Shown: positions 1,513 through 8,857 of the stretch, in pieces
How positions within the stretch are numbered: position 1 is the stretch's first letter
Layout: each line of letters starts with the position of its first letter
From: Candidatus Nanohalarchaeota archaeon
GTDB lineage: Archaea > Nanohalarchaeota > Nanosalinia > Nanosalinales > JAFCCC01
Assembly (NCBI GenBank): GCA_017610385.1
Contig: JAFCCC010000003.1
Span: 1 to 64,000 of the forward strand
DNA length: 64,000 nucleotides
Direction of reading: 5' to 3'
Position numbers and translations under genes: made by a program
Notes under the pieces: model-generated
Told to the model about the DNA's origin: nothing
Database searches by the model: none
Seen by the model: only the letters and a program-made list of their open reading frames with translations

Positions 1513-2328
1513 TTATAAATCATCTAAAGGACTTTGAATATTTTTTAATTTGCTGTTTGCAACATGAGTATAAATTTGGGTTGTTTGTAATCTTGAATGA
1601 CCCAACAAAGTTTGTATATATCTTATGTTTATTCCTTTTTCCAATAAATGGGTTGCGAAACTGTGTCTTAATGTGTGACAACTTACCTTCTTTTTAATGT
1701 TTGCTTTTTTTGCAGCATATTCAAATATTTTTTGAACAGCTTTTATAGAATATTTGTTATTTCTTCCTAAAAATAAATATTTTTGATGCTGTTCAAGCGC
1801 AATATAATTTCTAAGGTCTGGTTTTAGTTTTTCCGGAAGCATAACATACCTTTGTTTATTTCCCTTTCCTAATATTTTTACTACATTTCTTTCAAAATCT
1901 ATATTATTTACTTCTAGATTTACAAGTTCTGAAACCCTTAAACCCAAACCATAGAGACATTTTAATACTAATTTGTGTTTCGTGTTATTTGCAGAATTTA
2001 TTATCTTTTTTACTTCTTCTTTTGAAAGTACGGTTGGAAGTTTATTTTCCCGTTTTGGTCGTTTTATATTTTTACAAATATCTTTTTTTAAGACGTTCCC
2101 GAAAAAGAATTTTAGTGAACTTATGGCCAAATTTGCAGTGATATTGGTATAATGTTTTTTTATAATTAAATACCGAAGATATTTTTTAATATCTCTTTCT
2201 TGAATTTGTGGTATTTCTTTTTTGATAAATTTTAAGAAATCTTTTACAAAATAACTATAAGATTTTTTTGTTTTTTTGCTAAGGCCTCTACAATCCAATT
2301 CGAGTTCCAGTTTCTCAAGTTCGTCCAT
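1513..2328 (-). CDS. Xer-family tyrosine recombinase/integrase (XerA/XerD-like), putative cassette-array integrase
   Basis: SAM-like N-domain; catalytic residues in GLRVSE, GKGNK, HTLRHSFATHLLE, LLGH and TTQIYTHV; likely start is MDELEK at 2328; no IntI-specific insertion. Confidence 0.93.
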   Translation of the reverse strand: MDELEKLELELDCRGLSKKTKKSYSYFVKDFLKFIKKEIPQIQERDIKKYLRYLIIKKHYTNITANLAISSLKFFFGNVLKKDICKNIKRPKRENKLPTVLSKEEVKKIINSANNTKHKLVLKCLYGLGLRVSELVNLEVNNIDFERNVVKILGKGNKQRYVMLPEKLKPDLRNYIALEQHQKYLFLGRNNKYSIKAVQKIFEYAAKKANIKKKVSCHTLRHSFATHLLEKGINIRYIQTLLGHSRLQTTQIYTHVANSKLKNIQSPLDDL

Positions 2329-2358
2329 ACATACATTTTTAATTGATTTATATATAAA

Positions 2359-2386
2359 AATGTGCATATAAGTTGTTATGTCTAAT
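2359..2386 (+). repeat. Recombinase-proximal dif-like site (attI-equivalent), 6-bp spacer
   Basis: AATGTGCATAT-AAGTTG-TTATGTCTAAT; resembles E. coli dif GGTGCGCATAA-TGTATA-TTATGTTAAAT. Confidence 0.75.
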
Positions 2387-2399
2387 TTTCTCGGGTGCC

Positions 2400-3044
2400 T
2401 TATAGCTTTTCCATAAAGAAATAGTTCCCAATATGTTCTTTTTTGCCTGCAGTCATGGTAATCAATTTGGCTTCAATTATACGAAAATGCGACTCAAATA
2501 ATTGTTTCATTTCTTCAAATGAAGAATAATATAATTTTGTTCCAGCAGGCATTTTTGCACCTTCAGGAATTATTCTTAAATCTTTACCTTTCGCTCCGAA
2601 ATCAGGATTTTGATTATTGAAACAAATTGATAGATATTTTCCTTTTTCATTCAAAATCCTTTTAATATTCTCTAAATATTTGTTTCTTTGCTCAGGTGGT
2701 ATGTGGTGCAAAATTGCCCATTCCAATACAAAATCAAATTTATTATTTATTTCATCTAAATCAGCAACATCAAGAGACATAAATTTGATTTTTACATTAT
2801 GTTTCGCCGCATTTCCTTTTGCTAGTTTTATTGCATTTTCTGAGATGTCTATCCCTGTTACATCAAAACCTTTTGAAGCCAAATAAATAGCATAGAATCC
2901 TTCGCCACATCCAACATCGAGAACTTTACATGGTTTAATTTTTTCACTCTCAATTAGTTTTACTAATTCTTTTGGTGGCTCGGATTCTGTCCAGACTGCT
3001 CCTTCTTCATATATTTCTTCAAACATTTCTTTATCATTACTCAT
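2400..3044 (-). CDS. Class I SAM-dependent methyltransferase (cassette 1)
   Basis: VLDVGCGEG motif I, GIDIS, FDFVLE; TehB/TPMT-like. Confidence 0.9.
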   Translation of the reverse strand: MSNDKEMFEEIYEEGAVWTESEPPKELVKLIESEKIKPCKVLDVGCGEGFYAIYLASKGFDVTGIDISENAIKLAKGNAAKHNVKIKFMSLDVADLDEINNKFDFVLEWAILHHIPPEQRNKYLENIKRILNEKGKYLSICFNNQNPDFGAKGKDLRIIPEGAKMPAGTKLYYSSFEEMKQLFESHFRIIEAKLITMTAGKKEHIGNYFFMEKL

Positions 3045-3152
3045 AATTTAGTTAATTGTTCCATATTATATAAAATTAGTGATTGACGGCACCCGAGAAA
3101 ACTCTGCGGTTTTTTGCTACGCAAAAAATCCCCAAATTCTGACTTCGTCAGA

Positions 3153-3182
3153 ACTTCAGATAATCGCGATGTTAGTTGTAAT
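3153..3182 (+). repeat. Cassette core site 1
   Basis: ACTTCAGATAA-TCGCGATG-TTAGTTGTAAT. Confidence 0.8.
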
Positions 3183-3192
3183 TTTTGGGCAA

Positions 3193-3555
3193 TCAAATAT
3201 AGACTTCGATTTTTTGTTTAGAATATTCTTTCTTCAAAAAATCTAGTTTATCTTTATCTAGAACTTTTTTCCTTTTCATATCAAATAGCAATATGTTTAT
3301 AAAATCGTCAAGAAACGGTTCGGCAAATGCTATCTGAAATTGTTCACTATTTTCCAAAATTAATTCTTTTATAATATCAATAAAATTTTTTGGTTGTTCA
3401 ACCAGATGAACAATTTCAGGCAAAGCTCCTAATATTTGCTTTTCAAGCTCATCCATTAACTTTTTATCCGCATTTGCCATATCAATACGTTCTTGCAGTG
3501 TTGATCGCTCTACATATAGACCTACAACCTTCTTGACGATTTCTTTTGAACCCAT
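3193..3555 (-). CDS. Hypothetical protein (cassette 2)
   Basis: 120-aa ORF exactly filling the space between a 13-bp inverted repeat pair; upstream TATA-like box. Confidence 0.75.
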   Translation of the reverse strand: MGSKEIVKKVVGLYVERSTLQERIDMANADKKLMDELEKQILGALPEIVHLVEQPKNFIDIIKELILENSEQFQIAFAEPFLDDFINILLFDMKRKKVLDKDKLDFLKKEYSKQKIEVYI

Positions 3556-3772
3556 ATTATAATGTTAATTTTAAAGTTCTTATATATCTGTCGATTGCCC
3601 AAAAACTCTTCGGGATTTTTTGCTTCGCAAAAATCGTTGCACTATCCCTCGGTCTTTTCTATGAAAAGACGCAACTAACAGGAATTTAACGGTTCCGAAA
3701 CCTTGCAGGTTTCTACACCCAAATTTGATTTTCCAGCTCTGTTCCGCCTTCGGCTCCACGAGGGAAAATCAA

Positions 3773-3802
3773 ACTTCGCTTAATCCTGATGTTATACGAC
3801 AT
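3773..3802 (+). repeat. Cassette core site 2
   Basis: ACTTCGCTTAA-TCCTGATG-TTATACGACAT. Confidence 0.8.
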
Positions 3803-3850
3803 TCGCTCGCAGGCACAAAATTATTAAATGATTTAAGTTAACTAATTTTT

Positions 3851-4369
3851 ATGGATGATAAAACTAGAAAAAAGATTGAAGAATATGCAAAATCAATGAG
3901 ATGGACACCTAAAGATTTTTATTGGAAACATGCATTTATGGTTAGAGAATTCGCTCTAATGATTCAAAAAAGAGTCGGCGGAGATAAAGATATTGTTGAA
4001 GTTTCAGCACTTTTACATGATATTGGAAAATCAAAATTGCTCGGTCCTAAACACGAGGAAATTAGCGCAAAATTAGCAAAGGAATTTCTTGAACAAGTAG
4101 GATTTGATATAAATAAAATCAAGAAAATTGTCGAGTGTATAGAGTATAAAAATTTTAAGTCTATTGAAGCAAGAATTTTGCGCTCCGCCGACTCTATGAG
4201 TCTACTCAGGGACAAGGAAGGTCAAAATTGGTATTTTAAGACTATCTTAAAGAATAATAATGAGCGAATTCTCAAAGAGCTAAAAAAATCTTATTCTGAA
4301 ATTGAGTTTGATTTTGCAAAGAAGTTTGTTGAAGAAAATTACAAAAAATTAGTTAAAAAATATGAATAG
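3851..4369 (+). CDS. HD-domain phosphohydrolase (cassette 3)
   Basis: H...ALLHDIGK...H...D (RSADS) HD-family motifs. Confidence 0.88.
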   Translation: MDDKTRKKIEEYAKSMRWTPKDFYWKHAFMVREFALMIQKRVGGDKDIVEVSALLHDIGKSKLLGPKHEEISAKLAKEFLEQVGFDINKIKKIVECIEYKNFKSIEARILRSADSMSLLRDKEGQNWYFKTILKNNNERILKELKKSYSEIEFDFAKKFVEENYKKLVKKYE

Positions 4370-4415
4370 AGTGCCTGCTCGCGGACGCTGCGCTTAAAAT
4401 TCTTTCTGAATTTTA

Positions 4416-4445
4416 CACTCGTATATCCCTAACGTTAGACGTAAT
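4416..4445 (+). repeat. Cassette core site 3
   Basis: CACTCGTATAT-CCCTAACG-TTAGACGTAAT. Confidence 0.7.
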
Positions 4446-4502
4446 CGTAAGAGATGCCTACAAGAAAGAAAGATTTATTAATGCCCCAATTTTACTAAAT
4501 TT

Positions 4503-4985
4503 ATGGAGAAAAAAACACTTTTAGATTTTATAGCAAGGGCACACAGACATACTTATGCCGCACCAAAAGAAGTCAGAAAACAACATAGGTGTGAGGTGCC
4601 CATTCAAGAAGGTCATAAAGATTATGAATTTGTAGAAGGAGATTTAAGATATCACGATTCCTATGCAGGAAGCCAGTGGGCACCTGGAAGAGAAGTTGTT
4701 TTCTTTCAAGGAAATCCTATTTGGTGTATGGCATATCAAGGACAGCATAATTCAAAATATAATGACGCTTTTTTCCACGAACAAGCATTTCCATTTTTGA
4801 AAAAAGCTTTAATGAATTTTGATGACAGCATGCCTTTTAGAGGTCCTAAAGAATTCTCAGATGGTGCTTTCAAATATACTTTTGAAATGGAAGGAAATTA
4901 TGATTATTTCAAAGGGCAAGAGAGAATTCTTTACAAAGGAGAAAGTGTTTTTTTCCAAGATGTTATGGGTTCATTAATAACATAG
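4503..4985 (+). CDS. DUF5680-like protein (cassette 4)
   Basis: YHDSYAG...GREVVF....PIWCMAY.G and PFRGP..F..G.F.Y pattern recalled for DUF5680. Confidence 0.7.
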   Translation: MEKKTLLDFIARAHRHTYAAPKEVRKQHRCEVPIQEGHKDYEFVEGDLRYHDSYAGSQWAPGREVVFFQGNPIWCMAYQGQHNSKYNDAFFHEQAFPFLKKALMNFDDSMPFRGPKEFSDGAFKYTFEMEGNYDYFKGQERILYKGESVFFQDVMGSLIT

Positions 4986-5135
4986 AACGACATCTCTTAC
5001 GACTTCTTCGGAGTTTTTTCAAAACTCCTCGACCACGCCTTGCAGGCTCTCCTTCGGATCGGGGGCAATTAACAGCAATTAAGAGGAAAATCCCTTGCAG
5101 GAATTTTCCCAAATTTGCTCCACTCCGTTACGCAA

Positions 5136-5165
5136 ACTTCTTATAATCATGATGTTATACGATAT
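5136..5165 (+). repeat. Cassette core site 4
   Basis: ACTTCTTATAA-TCATGATG-TTATACGATAT. Confidence 0.8.
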
Positions 5166-5216
5166 TTGTAATTGTGCATAGCAAATTTTATAAAATTAAT
5201 AAATAACTATATTTTT

Positions 5217-5477
5217 GTGAGACATGAAAAAAAAGTTTGGCCAGAATATTTTCAAAAAATCCTTGATGATAAAAAAACTTATGAGCTTCGTCTTGCTGAT
5301 TGGGAATGCAACGAAGGAGATATTTTAGTTTTGCGGGAATGGAATCCGGAAACTAAAGAATACACTGGAAGAGAAATTGAAAAGAAAGTTACTTATGTTG
5401 GCAAAACTAAAAATTTTACATTCTGGCCAAAAGAAGATGTTGAAAAATATGGTTATCAAATCATAGCTTTCAAGTAG
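5217..5477 (+). CDS. ASCH/PUA-fold (DUF3850-like) protein (cassette 5)
   Basis: HEKKVWPEYFQKILDDKKTYELR...GDILVLREW...YTGR; probable GTG start at 5217. Confidence 0.85.
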   Translation: MRHEKKVWPEYFQKILDDKKTYELRLADWECNEGDILVLREWNPETKEYTGREIEKKVTYVGKTKNFTFWPKEDVEKYGYQIIAFK

Positions 5478-5520
5478 AACGGCACATTACAAACGCTAAA
5501 GAGGACGCTACGCTCCAGAA

Positions 5521-5550
5521 ACTTCTCATAAGCCTGGTGTTATACGCAAT
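5521..5550 (+). repeat. Cassette core site 5
   Basis: ACTTCTCATAA-GCCTGGTG-TTATACGCAAT. Confidence 0.8.
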
Positions 5551-5566
5551 TTTTCGATGGGCGGAT

Positions 5567-5896
5567 CTAGTGTGGGAACAAAATCTCTGCAAGAATCCCT
5601 AGTAAAACAAAAAAACCTAAGATTGTAGATATAAATATCAAAACAGAATAATCTTTCTTTTTTGTAATGCCAATAATACCGCAAAAAAAAGCAGCAATAC
5701 CAGAAAAGAACCCGACTAACATCGGCAAGGCTATTCCAGGTCTAACTAGAATATCCTGTGGTATTGTTCTCCCAGCTGGAATAGATTCATAAAGATCTAC
5801 AAAGGATATGCCGATATAAATAAATATTGGCGTAAAAACAAGTAATGCAAATGATAATTTACCTAAATTACTCTTTGGTATAAACTTTATTTTCAT
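5567..5896 (-). CDS. Small 3-TM membrane protein (cassette 6)
   Basis: Three hydrophobic segments; enclosed by a 14-bp inverted repeat pair. Confidence 0.8.
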   Translation of the reverse strand: MKIKFIPKSNLGKLSFALLVFTPIFIYIGISFVDLYESIPAGRTIPQDILVRPGIALPMLVGFFSGIAAFFCGIIGITKKKDYSVLIFISTILGFFVLLGILAEILFPH

Positions 5897-6063
5897 ATTC
5901 TAATAAGAAATATTAATGAGACATATTATTAAGTAAATAACTGTTTGTTTTGATACTATCCCTCGTCCATCGAAAAACTTCTTCCGCTTCGCTCCAGAAA
6001 CTTCTCTTCCAGATTTATTCATTTACCCTTTTAGATTTAATCAAACAAAGTAATAGTATACTT

Positions 6064-6524: not shown

Positions 6525-7553
6525 ATGAAGAAATTAAAATATTCCCTATTCAGTTTTGGAATGGCAATTGCCCTTTTAGTATTTTTTATGAATTCTGTAG
6601 GTTGGGGAGAATTATTAAGAGTATATAGAAACACAAACCCGCACATTTTGTCTTTTGCATTACTTCTTTCTTGTTCTGGGTTTTTTCTAAACACCCATGT
6701 TTGGAAAAATATTTTGGAATTTTTAAAAGTTCACATGCCCTTTAGAACCCTTTTAAGGTTATTTTATATGAGTCTATTTGCAAATTATGTAACTCCCTTT
6801 GGTCAAGCTGGTGGAGAACCATTTATGGCTTATATTTTATCCAAAAAATCAAAAATACCTTATGGACAGGGTTTAGCTACAATTATGTCTGCTGATATTA
6901 TTGGCGCAATAGCACCCATATTTTTTTCAGCGATTGGATTAGTTTACTATATTTTAACACAGAATGTGACCACAGTAATGTTTGAAGTTATTCTTGCTTT
7001 AATTTGCCTTGGCATTTTAATTATTTTTGGAATCATTATTCTTCAAACCAAAAGGAAATTTATTGAAAAAATAATTATTGCTGTTTCAAGATGGATTAGA
7101 CGGGTCTTAAGAGCAATTAAGTGGGATAAAAAAAGAATTGATCGGTATTTTGGTTATAAGCCCACCGTAGAAAGAATAAATATATTTTATAAGACATTTA
7201 CTGCAGTTATTGCTGAAAAACGATGGAGTATTGTTTCTTTTACCTTACTTTCAACTCTTGCACAGGTTTTAGCATTGTATTATTGTGTTTTAGCTTTAGG
7301 ATATACTCCAAAATTATTAGTATTTTTAGCTGTTTTGCCATTGGCCTCTCTATCAAGTTATTTGCCTTTGCCAGGGGGATTAGGTGGTATGGAGATTTCA
7401 ATAGCTTATTTGTTGGTGCTGCTTTGTAATTTGCCTATTGGTATCGCCACCGGTTCTGCTTTGTTATTTCGAGTTATTACTTATTGGATTCCATTGGGAG
7501 TTGGTGGTACATTAATGGCATATACTCTAAGAAGACCAATAATTGAAATCTAA
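6525..7553 (+). CDS. Lysylphosphatidylglycerol synthase TM / AglD2-like flippase-family membrane protein
   Basis: Multi-TM protein with NYVTPFGQAGGEP and PLPGGLGGME motifs. Confidence 0.85.
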   Translation: MKKLKYSLFSFGMAIALLVFFMNSVGWGELLRVYRNTNPHILSFALLLSCSGFFLNTHVWKNILEFLKVHMPFRTLLRLFYMSLFANYVTPFGQAGGEPFMAYILSKKSKIPYGQGLATIMSADIIGAIAPIFFSAIGLVYYILTQNVTTVMFEVILALICLGILIIFGIIILQTKRKFIEKIIIAVSRWIRRVLRAIKWDKKRIDRYFGYKPTVERINIFYKTFTAVIAEKRWSIVSFTLLSTLAQVLALYYCVLALGYTPKLLVFLAVLPLASLSSYLPLPGGLGGMEISIAYLLVLLCNLPIGIATGSALLFRVITYWIPLGVGGTLMAYTLRRPIIEI

Positions 7554-8857
7554 TTTAATCCAAATTGTTTCATAAGTTTCTTCATTGGCCCTCTTCTCAA
7601 ATTTTTTCCAGAAAATTTATTAACCATATTTTTAACTTGACGATATGTCTTTAATAATTCTCTTACGTCTTTTTCAGAAGTTCCAGAACCTTTAGAAATT
7701 CGTAATACTCTATTTCTATTTATTAATGACGGATCAGCCCTTTCTTTTGTAGTCATAGATTCAATAATATATTTAAATTTCTCAATTTTATCTCCTTCCA
7801 AATCTAAGACATTTTCTGGCATTTTCATTCCACCAGGAAGCATATCCTTAATTTGTGAGAACATCCCTGATTTTTTAGCAGTTGCTAATTGATCATAGAA
7901 TTCTTCTATGCTAAAGGTTCCTTCTAATATTTTTTTAGCTTTATCTTCGTCAAAGTTTTCCTTTGCTTTTTCTAAAAGTGATTTTAAGTCTGGAATTCCA
8001 AGCATTTTGGAAACAAACGGAACTGAATCATAAATTTCAAGATTATCTATTTTTTCTCCAGTACCAACAAATAAAACTGGAACATTTGCATGAAAACATG
8101 ATGAAAAAACCCCACCCGCCTTCGCAGAAGAATCTGTTTTTGTTACAATAATTCCTGTTATATCAATAGCATCATTAAAAGCCTTTGCCTGATCTCCGGA
8201 GGTTTGTCCAAGATCTGCAGGAACAATCAAGTATTTTTCATCTGGCTTAAATTTTTTAGAAATCTCTTTTAATTCTTCTATCAAATTAGTGTTTAAAGAA
8301 TCTCTCCCGGCAGAATCTACAATTATTAAGTTGCACTTATTCTTCTTTAGAGTTTTTAAACCATTTTTTACTATTTTTATTGCGTCTTTTGATTTTTTTT
8401 CTCCGTAAAAATCAACTTTAATTTTATCTGCTAATTGTTTTAATTGATCATATGCACCAGCCCGATAAATATCACAAGAAATAACGCCTACTTTATTTCC
8501 CTTTTTTCTGTAAAAATTAGCTAATTTTGCGGTTGTGGTGGTTTTGCCTGAACCAAATAAACCACATAGTAAGATTAATCCCCTTTCTAATTTTATTTCA
8601 GGTTTTTTCCCTAAGAATTCAATTAATTTATCATAAACTAAATTTAAAACATATTCTTTTCTTGTTAAGCCCTTTGGTAATTCTTTTTTTAATGCTTCTT
8701 TTTTAATTTTATTACTTAATTCAAAAACTAATTCTACTTCAACGTCGGATTTTAAGAGTTCTCTTTGAAGATCTTTAATTAAGGCTTCAACTTCTTCTTT
8801 ATCTACTAAACTCAATCGAGAAAACTTTCTTATACCTTCTTTTAACTTTTCAAACAT
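7550..8857 (-). CDS. srp54: Signal recognition particle protein SRP54
   Basis: GLFGSGKTTT, DSAGR and TKTDS GTPase motifs; M-domain IIESMT..ER, RISKGSG. Confidence 0.95.
   Translation of the reverse strand: MFEKLKEGIRKFSRLSLVDKEEVEALIKDLQRELLKSDVEVELVFELSNKIKKEALKKELPKGLTRKEYVLNLVYDKLIEFLGKKPEIKLERGLILLCGLFGSGKTTTTAKLANFYRKKGNKVGVISCDIYRAGAYDQLKQLADKIKVDFYGEKKSKDAIKIVKNGLKTLKKNKCNLIIVDSAGRDSLNTNLIEELKEISKKFKPDEKYLIVPADLGQTSGDQAKAFNDAIDITGIIVTKTDSSAKAGGVFSSCFHANVPVLFVGTGEKIDNLEIYDSVPFVSKMLGIPDLKSLLEKAKENFDEDKAKKILEGTFSIEEFYDQLATAKKSGMFSQIKDMLPGGMKMPENVLDLEGDKIEKFKYIIESMTTKERADPSLINRNRVLRISKGSGTSEKDVRELLKTYRQVKNMVNKFSGKNLRRGPMKKLMKQFGLN

Follow-up and report, generated by a model that had tools for sequence, protein, structure and literature searches.

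The array beside the recombinase gene

We analysed a 64-kb stretch of contig C3 (hereafter the window; JAFCCC010000003.1, positions 1 to 64,000) from a genome assembly of Candidatus Nanohalarchaeota (788 kb in 18 contigs, 32% G+C, an estimated 93.5% complete), in which a gene for a XerA-family tyrosine recombinase is transcribed away from six unrelated genes that are set apart by copies of a directly repeated site. A preliminary description of this DNA had seen in it an integron-like array of gene cassettes beside a recombinase other than IntI, and the observation is confirmed: the list of open reading frames (ORFs) and a Pfam scan bear out the six unrelated genes next to the divergent recombinase gene as well as their mixed orientation, with three genes on either strand. 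As for the single repeat said to separate each gene from the next, five complete sites are indeed in place, while the copy put at 2359 is merely a right half (TGTTATGTCTAATTT, 2374-2388). The array ends in a left half-site (AAACTTCTC, 5998-6006) which had not been listed before, and it comprises five complete repeats with one half repeat at either end. When the whole window was scanned with the pattern ACTTC-N2-WTAA-N6-TGTTA, exact matches were found at 3153, 3773, 5136 and 5521 only, all four on the plus strand and all intergenic, and a weight matrix added a diverged copy (4412-4447). The features of the array are as follows.

1513..2328, minus strand: XerA-family tyrosine recombinase, presumed cassette integrase (profile scores, structure alignment, start of homologues)
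2340..2378, plus strand: attI-like junction by the recombinase promoter, a short TTATAT/ATATAA repeat followed by GT-TGTTA (read from the sequence)
2376..3172: cassette A, SAM methyltransferase gene (2400-3044, minus), inverted repeat of 14 nt (2386-2399 / 3088-3101), short 3' module
3149..3184, plus strand: site S1 (L'-bulge-R' arm, see below), with GTTA at 3171-3174
3173..3792: cassette B, gene for a 120-aa protein without Pfam match (3193-3555, minus), inverted repeat of 13 nt (3182-3194 / 3593-3605), long attC-like element (3671-3804)
3769..3804, plus strand: site S2 (pattern and weight matrix)
3793..4435: cassette C, gene for an HD-domain protein (3851-4369, plus), imperfect inverted repeat (3803-3815 / 4370-4382, 11 of 13), short module
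4412..4447, plus strand: site S3, the diverged copy (weight matrix)
4436..5155: cassette D, gene for a DUF5680 protein (4503-4985, plus), inverted repeat of 12 nt (4445-4456 / 4991-5002), long attC-like element (5065-5167)
5132..5167, plus strand: site S4 (pattern and weight matrix)
5156..5540: cassette E, DUF3850/ASCH gene (~5224-5477, plus), imperfect inverted repeat with one bulge (5165-5177 / 5481-5493), short module
5517..5552, plus strand: site S5 (pattern and weight matrix)
5541..6006: cassette F, gene for a 109-aa protein (5567-5896, minus; a membrane protein in the preliminary description, no Pfam match), inverted repeat of 11 nt (5550-5560 / 5967-5977), closed by the left half-site

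Each of the six genes is enclosed by an inverted repeat of its own, four of them perfect and two imperfect, just as had been reported, and the start of every repeat overlaps the last 2-3 nt of the 36-nt site window. Perfect repeats of at least 11 nt in this geometry occur in four of the six cassettes as compared to 1.5% of 2971 random positions of the genome, and cassettes of other genomes show the same arrangement, with perfect repeats of at least 10 nt (10-16 nt), mostly at the same offset, in 21 of 30 cases versus 5 of 30 controls. A function of these repeats as stems that pair or process the ends of mRNAs was considered and rejected, because all of them are oriented alike with respect to the array, whereas the genes lie in both directions; TATA-like sequence inside the repeats, recognised by eye, likewise speaks against it. 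Current integron models leave a private inverted repeat around every cassette unexplained. TATA-like stretches were also seen by eye before the plus-strand genes, and the cassette genes may accordingly be equipped with promoters of their own.

Folded sites and cassette boundaries

The GC-rich spacers of the array are 74-81% identical over 84-133 nt to spacers of unrelated metagenome loci that encode relatives of the recombinase, and two shorter matches of 51 nt each reach 80-82% identity. In its complete form the element found there has a length of ~100-190 nt and is built as R''ext-TAACA-L''(11 nt), a variable loop with small hairpins and CCCAAATT, and AACTTC-L'(11 nt)-2-nt bulge-TGTTA. The 11 nt of L'' are the reverse complement of the 11 nt ahead of the bulge in the site and TAACA pairs with TGTTA, so that the hairpin has an R box of 5 bp separated from an L box of 11 bp by a bulge of 2 nt, and is closed by a variable loop. 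Since this partner arm complements the site, the repeat of 28-30 bp that separates the genes is the L'-bulge-R' arm of an attC-like hairpin. The bulge, located between the two boxes, reads GA, GT or AA on the plus-sense strand, and the other arm is without any unpaired stretch.

The pairing is borne out by covariation. In a MAFFT alignment of 15 elements, pairing across the R and L boxes (16 pairs) amounts to 86.3%, and nine of these pairs vary on both sides; with five flanking control pairs included, 78.7% are paired versus 28-40% when the 3' partners are slid, and the covariation score was reached by none of 500 shuffles. Eight of 19 elements have at least 14 of 16 self-matches, and these represent six different L' sequences, each with its own complement. 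A covariance model built from the 15 elements recovered a further 73 elements, 70 of them distinct, from genomes that belong to another phylum, with 93.7% pairing versus 29-43% after sliding and 10 of 11 L-box pairs varying on both sides, although these figures are inflated as the alignment was fitted to the structure of the model. The AAC/GTT columns are invariant across the family, and a search of Rfam returned no matching family apart from two matches at chance level.

Several features distinguish the two strands of the element. Among the non-standard cells of the alignment, the strand reading away from the recombinase has A.C 39 times and G.T 8 times (15 of the 39 stem from one column), and of 76 hairpin loops in the variable region 44 are T-N-C and one is G-N-A; on the complementary strand these become G.T wobbles and G-N-A triloops. 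The G-N-A triloop is a very stable DNA motif. Folding energies calculated for DNA favour the bottom strand in 63 of 70 elements. In the window, the hairpins that had been noticed ahead of each site are real, and six of its eight triloop hairpins with perfect 4-bp stems are T-N-C on the plus strand, as opposed to 6% genome-wide. This folding bias suggests that the bottom strand is favoured, as in integrons, and it may also be the strand that is cut. Because of its covarying R''-L'' partner arm and this strand preference, the repeat appears to follow the logic of attC.

The window itself is simply a degenerate sample of the family, with two imperfect long hairpins and four short junctions. The long elements of cassettes B and D match the covariance model with 81.2 and 59.9 bits respectively, and a weak match (28.5 bits, E 0.021) covers 3069-3184 at the end of cassette A. 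The R'' extension of cassette B pairs with the cassette's own 5' end at S1 in four of five positions. No R'' block is present in four of the six units, in line with the earlier statement that most units lack the R'' box of attC. Two arrays from reference genomes (L198 and L203) also mix long hairpins with site-only junctions of 33-36 nt like those of cassettes A, C, E and F, and their occurrence there makes the site-only junction a recurrent second junction type.

The preliminary description had proposed Xer/dif-type chemistry acting on sites other than attC, a view which finds no support in a repeat that forms the L'-R' arm of a covarying hairpin with a favoured bottom strand. In its explicit form, such a system would use a 34-bp duplex (AAACTTC...TAA-N8-TTA...AATT) bound by two XerA monomers, its cassettes would be IMEX-like and the hairpins accessory or irrelevant. 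The site-only junctions without partner arm (four of six in the window and several elsewhere) would be easily accommodated by it, as would the flanking motifs AACTTC and AAT, which are conserved as sequence yet unpaired, and IntI itself has kept the ability for duplex recombination (PMC4792948). On the other hand, the covariation of the L box with a distant arm and the bottom-strand bias need a folded single strand, and adjacent sites vary in their central region (CGCGAT, CCTGAT, CCTAAC, CATGAT, CCTGGT), which fits poorly with two-strand exchange. The arms of the 34-bp duplex match weakly (~7-10 of 13, counted by eye with no control).

A cassette of this family starts with TTA, five cassette-specific nucleotides, AAT and a specific arm of the inverted repeat, followed by one or more genes in either direction, the partner arm and the attC-like element. 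Its boundary can be located in six loci whose recombinase regions share 64-80% DNA identity: their conservation extends from the gene across a small hairpin (CTATTAAAC...GTTTAATAG) to TTGTT, whereas past ...GCGTTTAATAGTTGTT there are six variable nucleotides, AATT, and then nothing shared. By comparison with these loci, which are conserved to TGTT and then diverge, the crossover of the attI-like junction in the window would be GTT at 2375-2377. Two copies of one cassette in locus L085 start alike from GTTAG onward only, and the exact exchange bond probably lies within GTT. A sign of turnover is seen in loci L121 and L128, whose arrays differ even though the DNA through the recombinase is 87% identical over 2.2 kb. 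Cassette ends are, moreover, matched to each other: the five nucleotides before TAACA agree with the five after TGTTA of the same cassette in 3.5 of 5 positions on average (perfectly in 7 of 19 cases), as compared to 2.3 of 5 when the site of the neighbour is used as control. In a simulated excised circle, this own-end pairing together with the private repeat lengthens the stem of the hairpin, which is impossible in the array.

Further data come from assembled contigs of three other metagenomes (DNA; none of the listed sequencing runs is recorded as RNA), each sharing 5-6% of the sampled words; parts of the window that were not covered carried no weight as evidence. There, the hairpin modules reach depths of 136-937 versus 0-25 for genes, single cassettes occur at 90-98.5% identity beside other neighbours, and the ASCH cassette (E) has different neighbours in contigs of two of these metagenomes. 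As far as they can be read from alignments, the boundary, own-end and turnover signs are classic signatures of integron cassettes that were inserted at attI and shuffled. They also bear on the possibility that we are dealing with a non-mobile family of intergenic repeats, e.g., terminator-like, regulatory or REP-like hairpins that lie near a recombinase gene by chance. The hairpins do form GC-rich islands between genes and movement was not seen directly, but we give almost no credence to this explanation in view of the sharp TGTT breakpoint by the recombinase across related loci, the match between cassette ends and their own hairpins, the same cassette with other neighbours in other metagenomes, and an orientation that follows the recombinase and not the genes, which face both ways.

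Two further observations concern the composition of arrays at other loci. Locus L099 contains a tandem duplicate of a cassette with its hairpin (785-1158 and 2090-2462, 95% identity over 374 nt). A non-coding block of ~190-240 nt that contains CCCGACCACCCGCCCCTAAATTG and is 83-89% identical between copies stands directly after cassette-start sites in unrelated loci (L085 1659-1851 and 7956-8147; L114 3249-3489; L119 upstream of the recombinase) and represents a second cassette-borne element.

The recombinase, its linkage to arrays and its distribution

The recombinase ORF extends over 1513-2367 on the minus strand and matches PF00589 (E 3e-43); its start is likely at 2328, because homologues begin at MDELEK. 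It passes the NCBI equivalog model for archaeal XerA (NF040815, 271.7 bits versus a cut-off of 220) and remains below the cut-off of the integron integrase model (TIGR02249, 235.8 versus 265 bits), to which it aligns in two pieces with model positions 182-239 skipped. Likewise, its alignment with VchIntIA (2a3v) is interrupted at residues 194/208 of the query and 186/244 of the chain, which is the IntI-specific segment, and this segment has 19 residues in the recombinase as compared to 62 in 20 IntI-like proteins. Both the profile models and the structure alignment therefore agree with the earlier statement that the enzyme lacks the IntI insertion. The enzyme is equally similar to solved XerA structures (4a8e, 5hxy) as to 2a3v. 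All 25 close relatives match the XerA model at E <= 1e-10, and the columns which we take to be the catalytic residues R-K-H-R-H-Y are invariant among them. The closest relatives are 61-78% identical and include proteins from metagenome-assembled genomes (MAGs) named Methanofastidiosia, Diapherotrites and Aenigmarchaeota, although most come without a source name.

A canonical IntI had been expected to be absent, and a profile search of the 93.5% complete assembly indeed gave no match above the cut-off for it. The same type of search corrected an initial result by tblastn, which had detected one copy only and proved too insensitive, so that we had to abandon the notion of a sole tyrosine recombinase in this genome: two distant ones are encoded outside the window (C3:66896-67777, plus strand; C14:23783-24322, minus strand; ORFs of 431 and 489 aa), with 76-81 bits in the XerA model and thus far under its cut-off.

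In phylogenetic trees with an outgroup of mostly bacterial Xer and IntI proteins (30-49% identity, among the matches listed), the insert-bearing proteins form one clade (support 100 and 99) and 18 array-linked enzymes another (support 93), next to a second small array-linked clade. The nearest neighbour of the window enzyme is that of L085 (support 98), both being placed among stand-alone XerA genes, and resolution is lost in the deeper branches.

The association of recombinase and hairpin was examined in 80 metagenome loci picked by recombinase similarity alone. Of 41 model matches in these loci, 40 are located upstream of the recombinase gene and on the strand opposite to it; 16 of the 80 loci have a match at E <= 0.01. 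A second set of 80 mostly bacterial loci gave no clear match, including 20 loci whose proteins carry the IntI insert. In reference genomes, 6 of 12 fetched arrays are headed by such a recombinase and several others end at a contig edge; one array-bearing genome has two arrays, each having its own recombinase.

These data weigh on the idea of an ordinary integron remnant, i.e., a cluster of canonical attC sites without integrase (CALIN) that is served in trans by an IntI, with the XerA-type gene as a bystander. R and L boxes, the GTT crossover, own-end complementarity and the bottom strand would all agree with it, and most reported archaeal integrons are in fact clusters without IntI (PMC9668308). 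Nevertheless, we regard this as highly improbable, since the 93.5% complete genome has no IntI match above cut-off, the recombinase heads the array in a fixed orientation at many loci, and no array-linked enzyme carries the insert, the 20 insert-bearing proteins forming a separate clade. Furthermore, none of the 20 loci with IntI-like genes was matched by the covariance model (the attC content of those flanks was left unchecked), and the hairpin has no unpaired central spacer and carries its bulge on the other arm when compared with attC as described in PMC5027507.

The proposal of a duplex dif-type system is likewise affected by the enzyme data. It gains from the fact that the enzyme passes the XerA model without an IntI insert and groups with stand-alone XerA genes. 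Four of the five array-bearing genomes encode, besides the array-linked enzyme, another XerA that scores better and stands apart from any array. No solitary candidate dif was, however, found near stand-alone XerA genes in the five genomes when up to one mismatch was allowed: none of 24 pattern matches lies on a contig with a stand-alone XerA; 20 are in the fetched arrays and four on two further, unexamined contigs of one genome (G083). Nor is XerA a core gene of the phylum to which the window belongs. Altogether we think a duplex system unlikely.

The earlier suggestion to search DPANN genomes for similar arrays was fruitful: of 151 genomes sampled from another archaeal phylum, a DPANN phylum that includes a Candidatus Pacearchaeota MAG, 62 contain the hairpin family (E <= 1e-6), often in runs of 4-7 elements. 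In the window's own phylum, the element was found in none of 69 other genomes, XerA above the model cut-off in 1 of 70 (the window genome only), and no other copies of the recombinase in 40 genomes of the same order or in the whole phylum. Together with nearest proteins from other archaeal groups, this distribution means that the platform was imported into the window genome.

Isolated cassettes or sites exist on two other contigs of the same genome, C11 (6367-7427 and 7442-7900 of L001) and C9 (6985-7803 of L002, 4543-4635 of L003). Their cargo includes a gene for an HhH-GPD glycosylase between two elements with a cytidine/dCMP deaminase cassette beside it, and a DUF7557 cassette with an inverted repeat of 12 nt (7000-7011 / 7565-7576) of its own. 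tRNA genes are adjacent to two of the isolated cassettes.

Relation to integrons and other Xer-type systems

Integrons are the textbook gene-capture device of bacteria and are defined by the extra domain of IntI and by folded attC sites. The locus described here resembles them in many respects: a divergent tyrosine recombinase heads an array of small accessory genes, with toxin-antitoxin-like and methyltransferase cargo; the sites are imperfect palindromes with R and L boxes, a variable loop and an invariant AAC/GTT at the crossover; the first bases of a cassette complement its own R''; folding favours the bottom strand; and the insertion point lies beside the integrase gene. It differs from them in an enzyme that passes the XerA model and is devoid of the IntI-specific (I2) domain, in a hairpin that has no unpaired central spacer, and in the conservation of unpaired motifs (AACTTC, CCCAAATT, AAT). 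Additional differences are the private inverted repeat of 10-16 bp around the genes of each cassette, an attI in the form of a small hairpin, junctions that in some cases lack the 5' arm, and genes facing both ways (three of six in the opposite direction) instead of promoterless one-way cassettes read from a common promoter.

Modules of genes bounded by Xer-type sites that are able to accumulate at one place are also known from other systems. IMEX and the pdif modules of Acinetobacter depend on the host XerC/D and on duplex dif-like sites, which alternate in orientation in the case of pdif. In contrast, the sites of the present array are all direct repeats and have covarying hairpin arms, and the recombinase belongs to the platform. 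With archaeal XerA/dif the array shares the recombinase family, as judged from the profile score and the similarity to 4a8e and 5hxy, and the use of a single enzyme without paralogous partner. In Thermococcales, however, dif occurs once in the terminus region, has an 11-6-11 layout and does not adjoin xerA (Cortez et al. 2010, PMC2958812), whereas here five full sites stand in a row beside the gene, the sites of the family have folded partner arms, isolated sites are found on two other contigs, and the gene is missing at the model cut-off from the other 69 genomes of the phylum.

On these grounds we consider it probable that the locus is a gene-capture platform of the integron type but of a kind of its own, as had been suggested earlier for a cassette platform with a non-IntI recombinase of the Xer type; the TGTT breakpoint, own-end pairing and linkage to the recombinase all support this. 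In our model, the attC-like element would fold as single-stranded DNA from the bottom strand and the XerA-family enzyme would carry out strand exchange at the GTT/AAC triplet in the R box, so that cassettes could exit as circles and enter at the attI-like hairpin beside the recombinase gene. In an excised circle, the 5' end of the cassette and its own inverted repeat would extend the stem by 15-20 bp, a stem that would be barred in the array. The free cassette would thus be the better-folded and favoured substrate, while arrays would be kept stable. Both a single-stranded substrate and the role of this particular enzyme in cassette recombination are predicted from the sequence data.

Several points weigh against this model. 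The own-end rule fails in 8 of 19 pairs (at most 3 of 5 matching), although some of these failures are probably due to an undetected site between the two hits, and the fitted alignment has flattered the pairing of the 73 further elements, as mentioned above. The hairpins of the window are poor, with self-pairing of 12 of 16 in cassette B and 11 of 16 in cassette D and no 5' arm in cassettes A, C, E and F. The window enzyme groups with stand-alone XerA proteins and that of L085, outside the main array-linked clade (support 86, which is not decisive). It also has no I2 helix, by which IntI recognises extrahelical bases and prevents exchange of the second strand (PMC4792948). Canonical attC sites are described with an unpaired central spacer of 5-6 nt per arm and with extrahelical bases that face the AAC arm when the bottom strand is folded (PMC5027507), the reverse of the single 2-nt bulge found here, which is on the AAC arm of that strand. 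Finally, neither an excision circle nor an empty site nor recombination was seen in the assembled contigs. The window array may therefore be a fossil or in decay, or may use its site as duplex DNA, and its activity is only putative, given that four of six junctions are without 5' arm and that no excision was seen.

Judged from comparative sequence data, the family as a whole is a real and widespread integron-like cassette system with folded attC-like sites and Xer-type recombinases devoid of the IntI domain, and the window is an imported and partly degenerate example of it. Arrays of this kind occur in numerous further archaea of very small size, which gives the impression of a second type of integron that has gone unnoticed. 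With a confidence that stays a little short of even, we propose that these arrays form a second integron lineage, either independent or ancestral, in which a structure-specific single-strand system is run by Xer-type enzymes that never gained the I2 domain. Archaeal integrons with an IntI including its extra domain have been reported from 75 of 6718 archaeal genomes in surveys with standard tools (Ghaly et al. 2022, PMC9668308), as opposed to the 62 of 151 genomes of a single DPANN phylum with the hairpin family. Compared with the few per cent reported for archaeal integrons, this frequency suggests that attC models likely miss these sites. We found no description of such arrays in the literature, with the proviso that data S1-S3 of PMC9668308, which were outside the search, may include some of them as clusters without IntI.

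A second integron lineage would constitute a major route of gene exchange among DPANN archaea. If the cassettes move, they would probably be a main trade route for accessory genes in archaea with reduced genomes, including exchange across phyla as suggested by the imported copy of the window. It would also be a living answer to the question whether the folded attC preceded the domain that recognises it or vice versa. Escudero et al. (PMC4792948) note that domain and sites each seem useless alone and speculate on a Xer-like ancestor. As folded sites, a GTT crossover and cassette logic are here combined with a Xer-type enzyme without the domain, this question could be approached experimentally.

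The array region is flanked on the left by a gene for archaeal Pus10 (197-1435) and on the right by genes for a NUDIX protein and an LPG-synthase-like protein as well as by a long ORF, a putative SRP54 gene. A different small hairpin (cgcttaaRcctttt..aaaaggYtta) is located at 85-115 of the window and recurs in L001 on contig C11 (~8110-8140 and ~8290-8325), where its copies lie around a tRNA gene.

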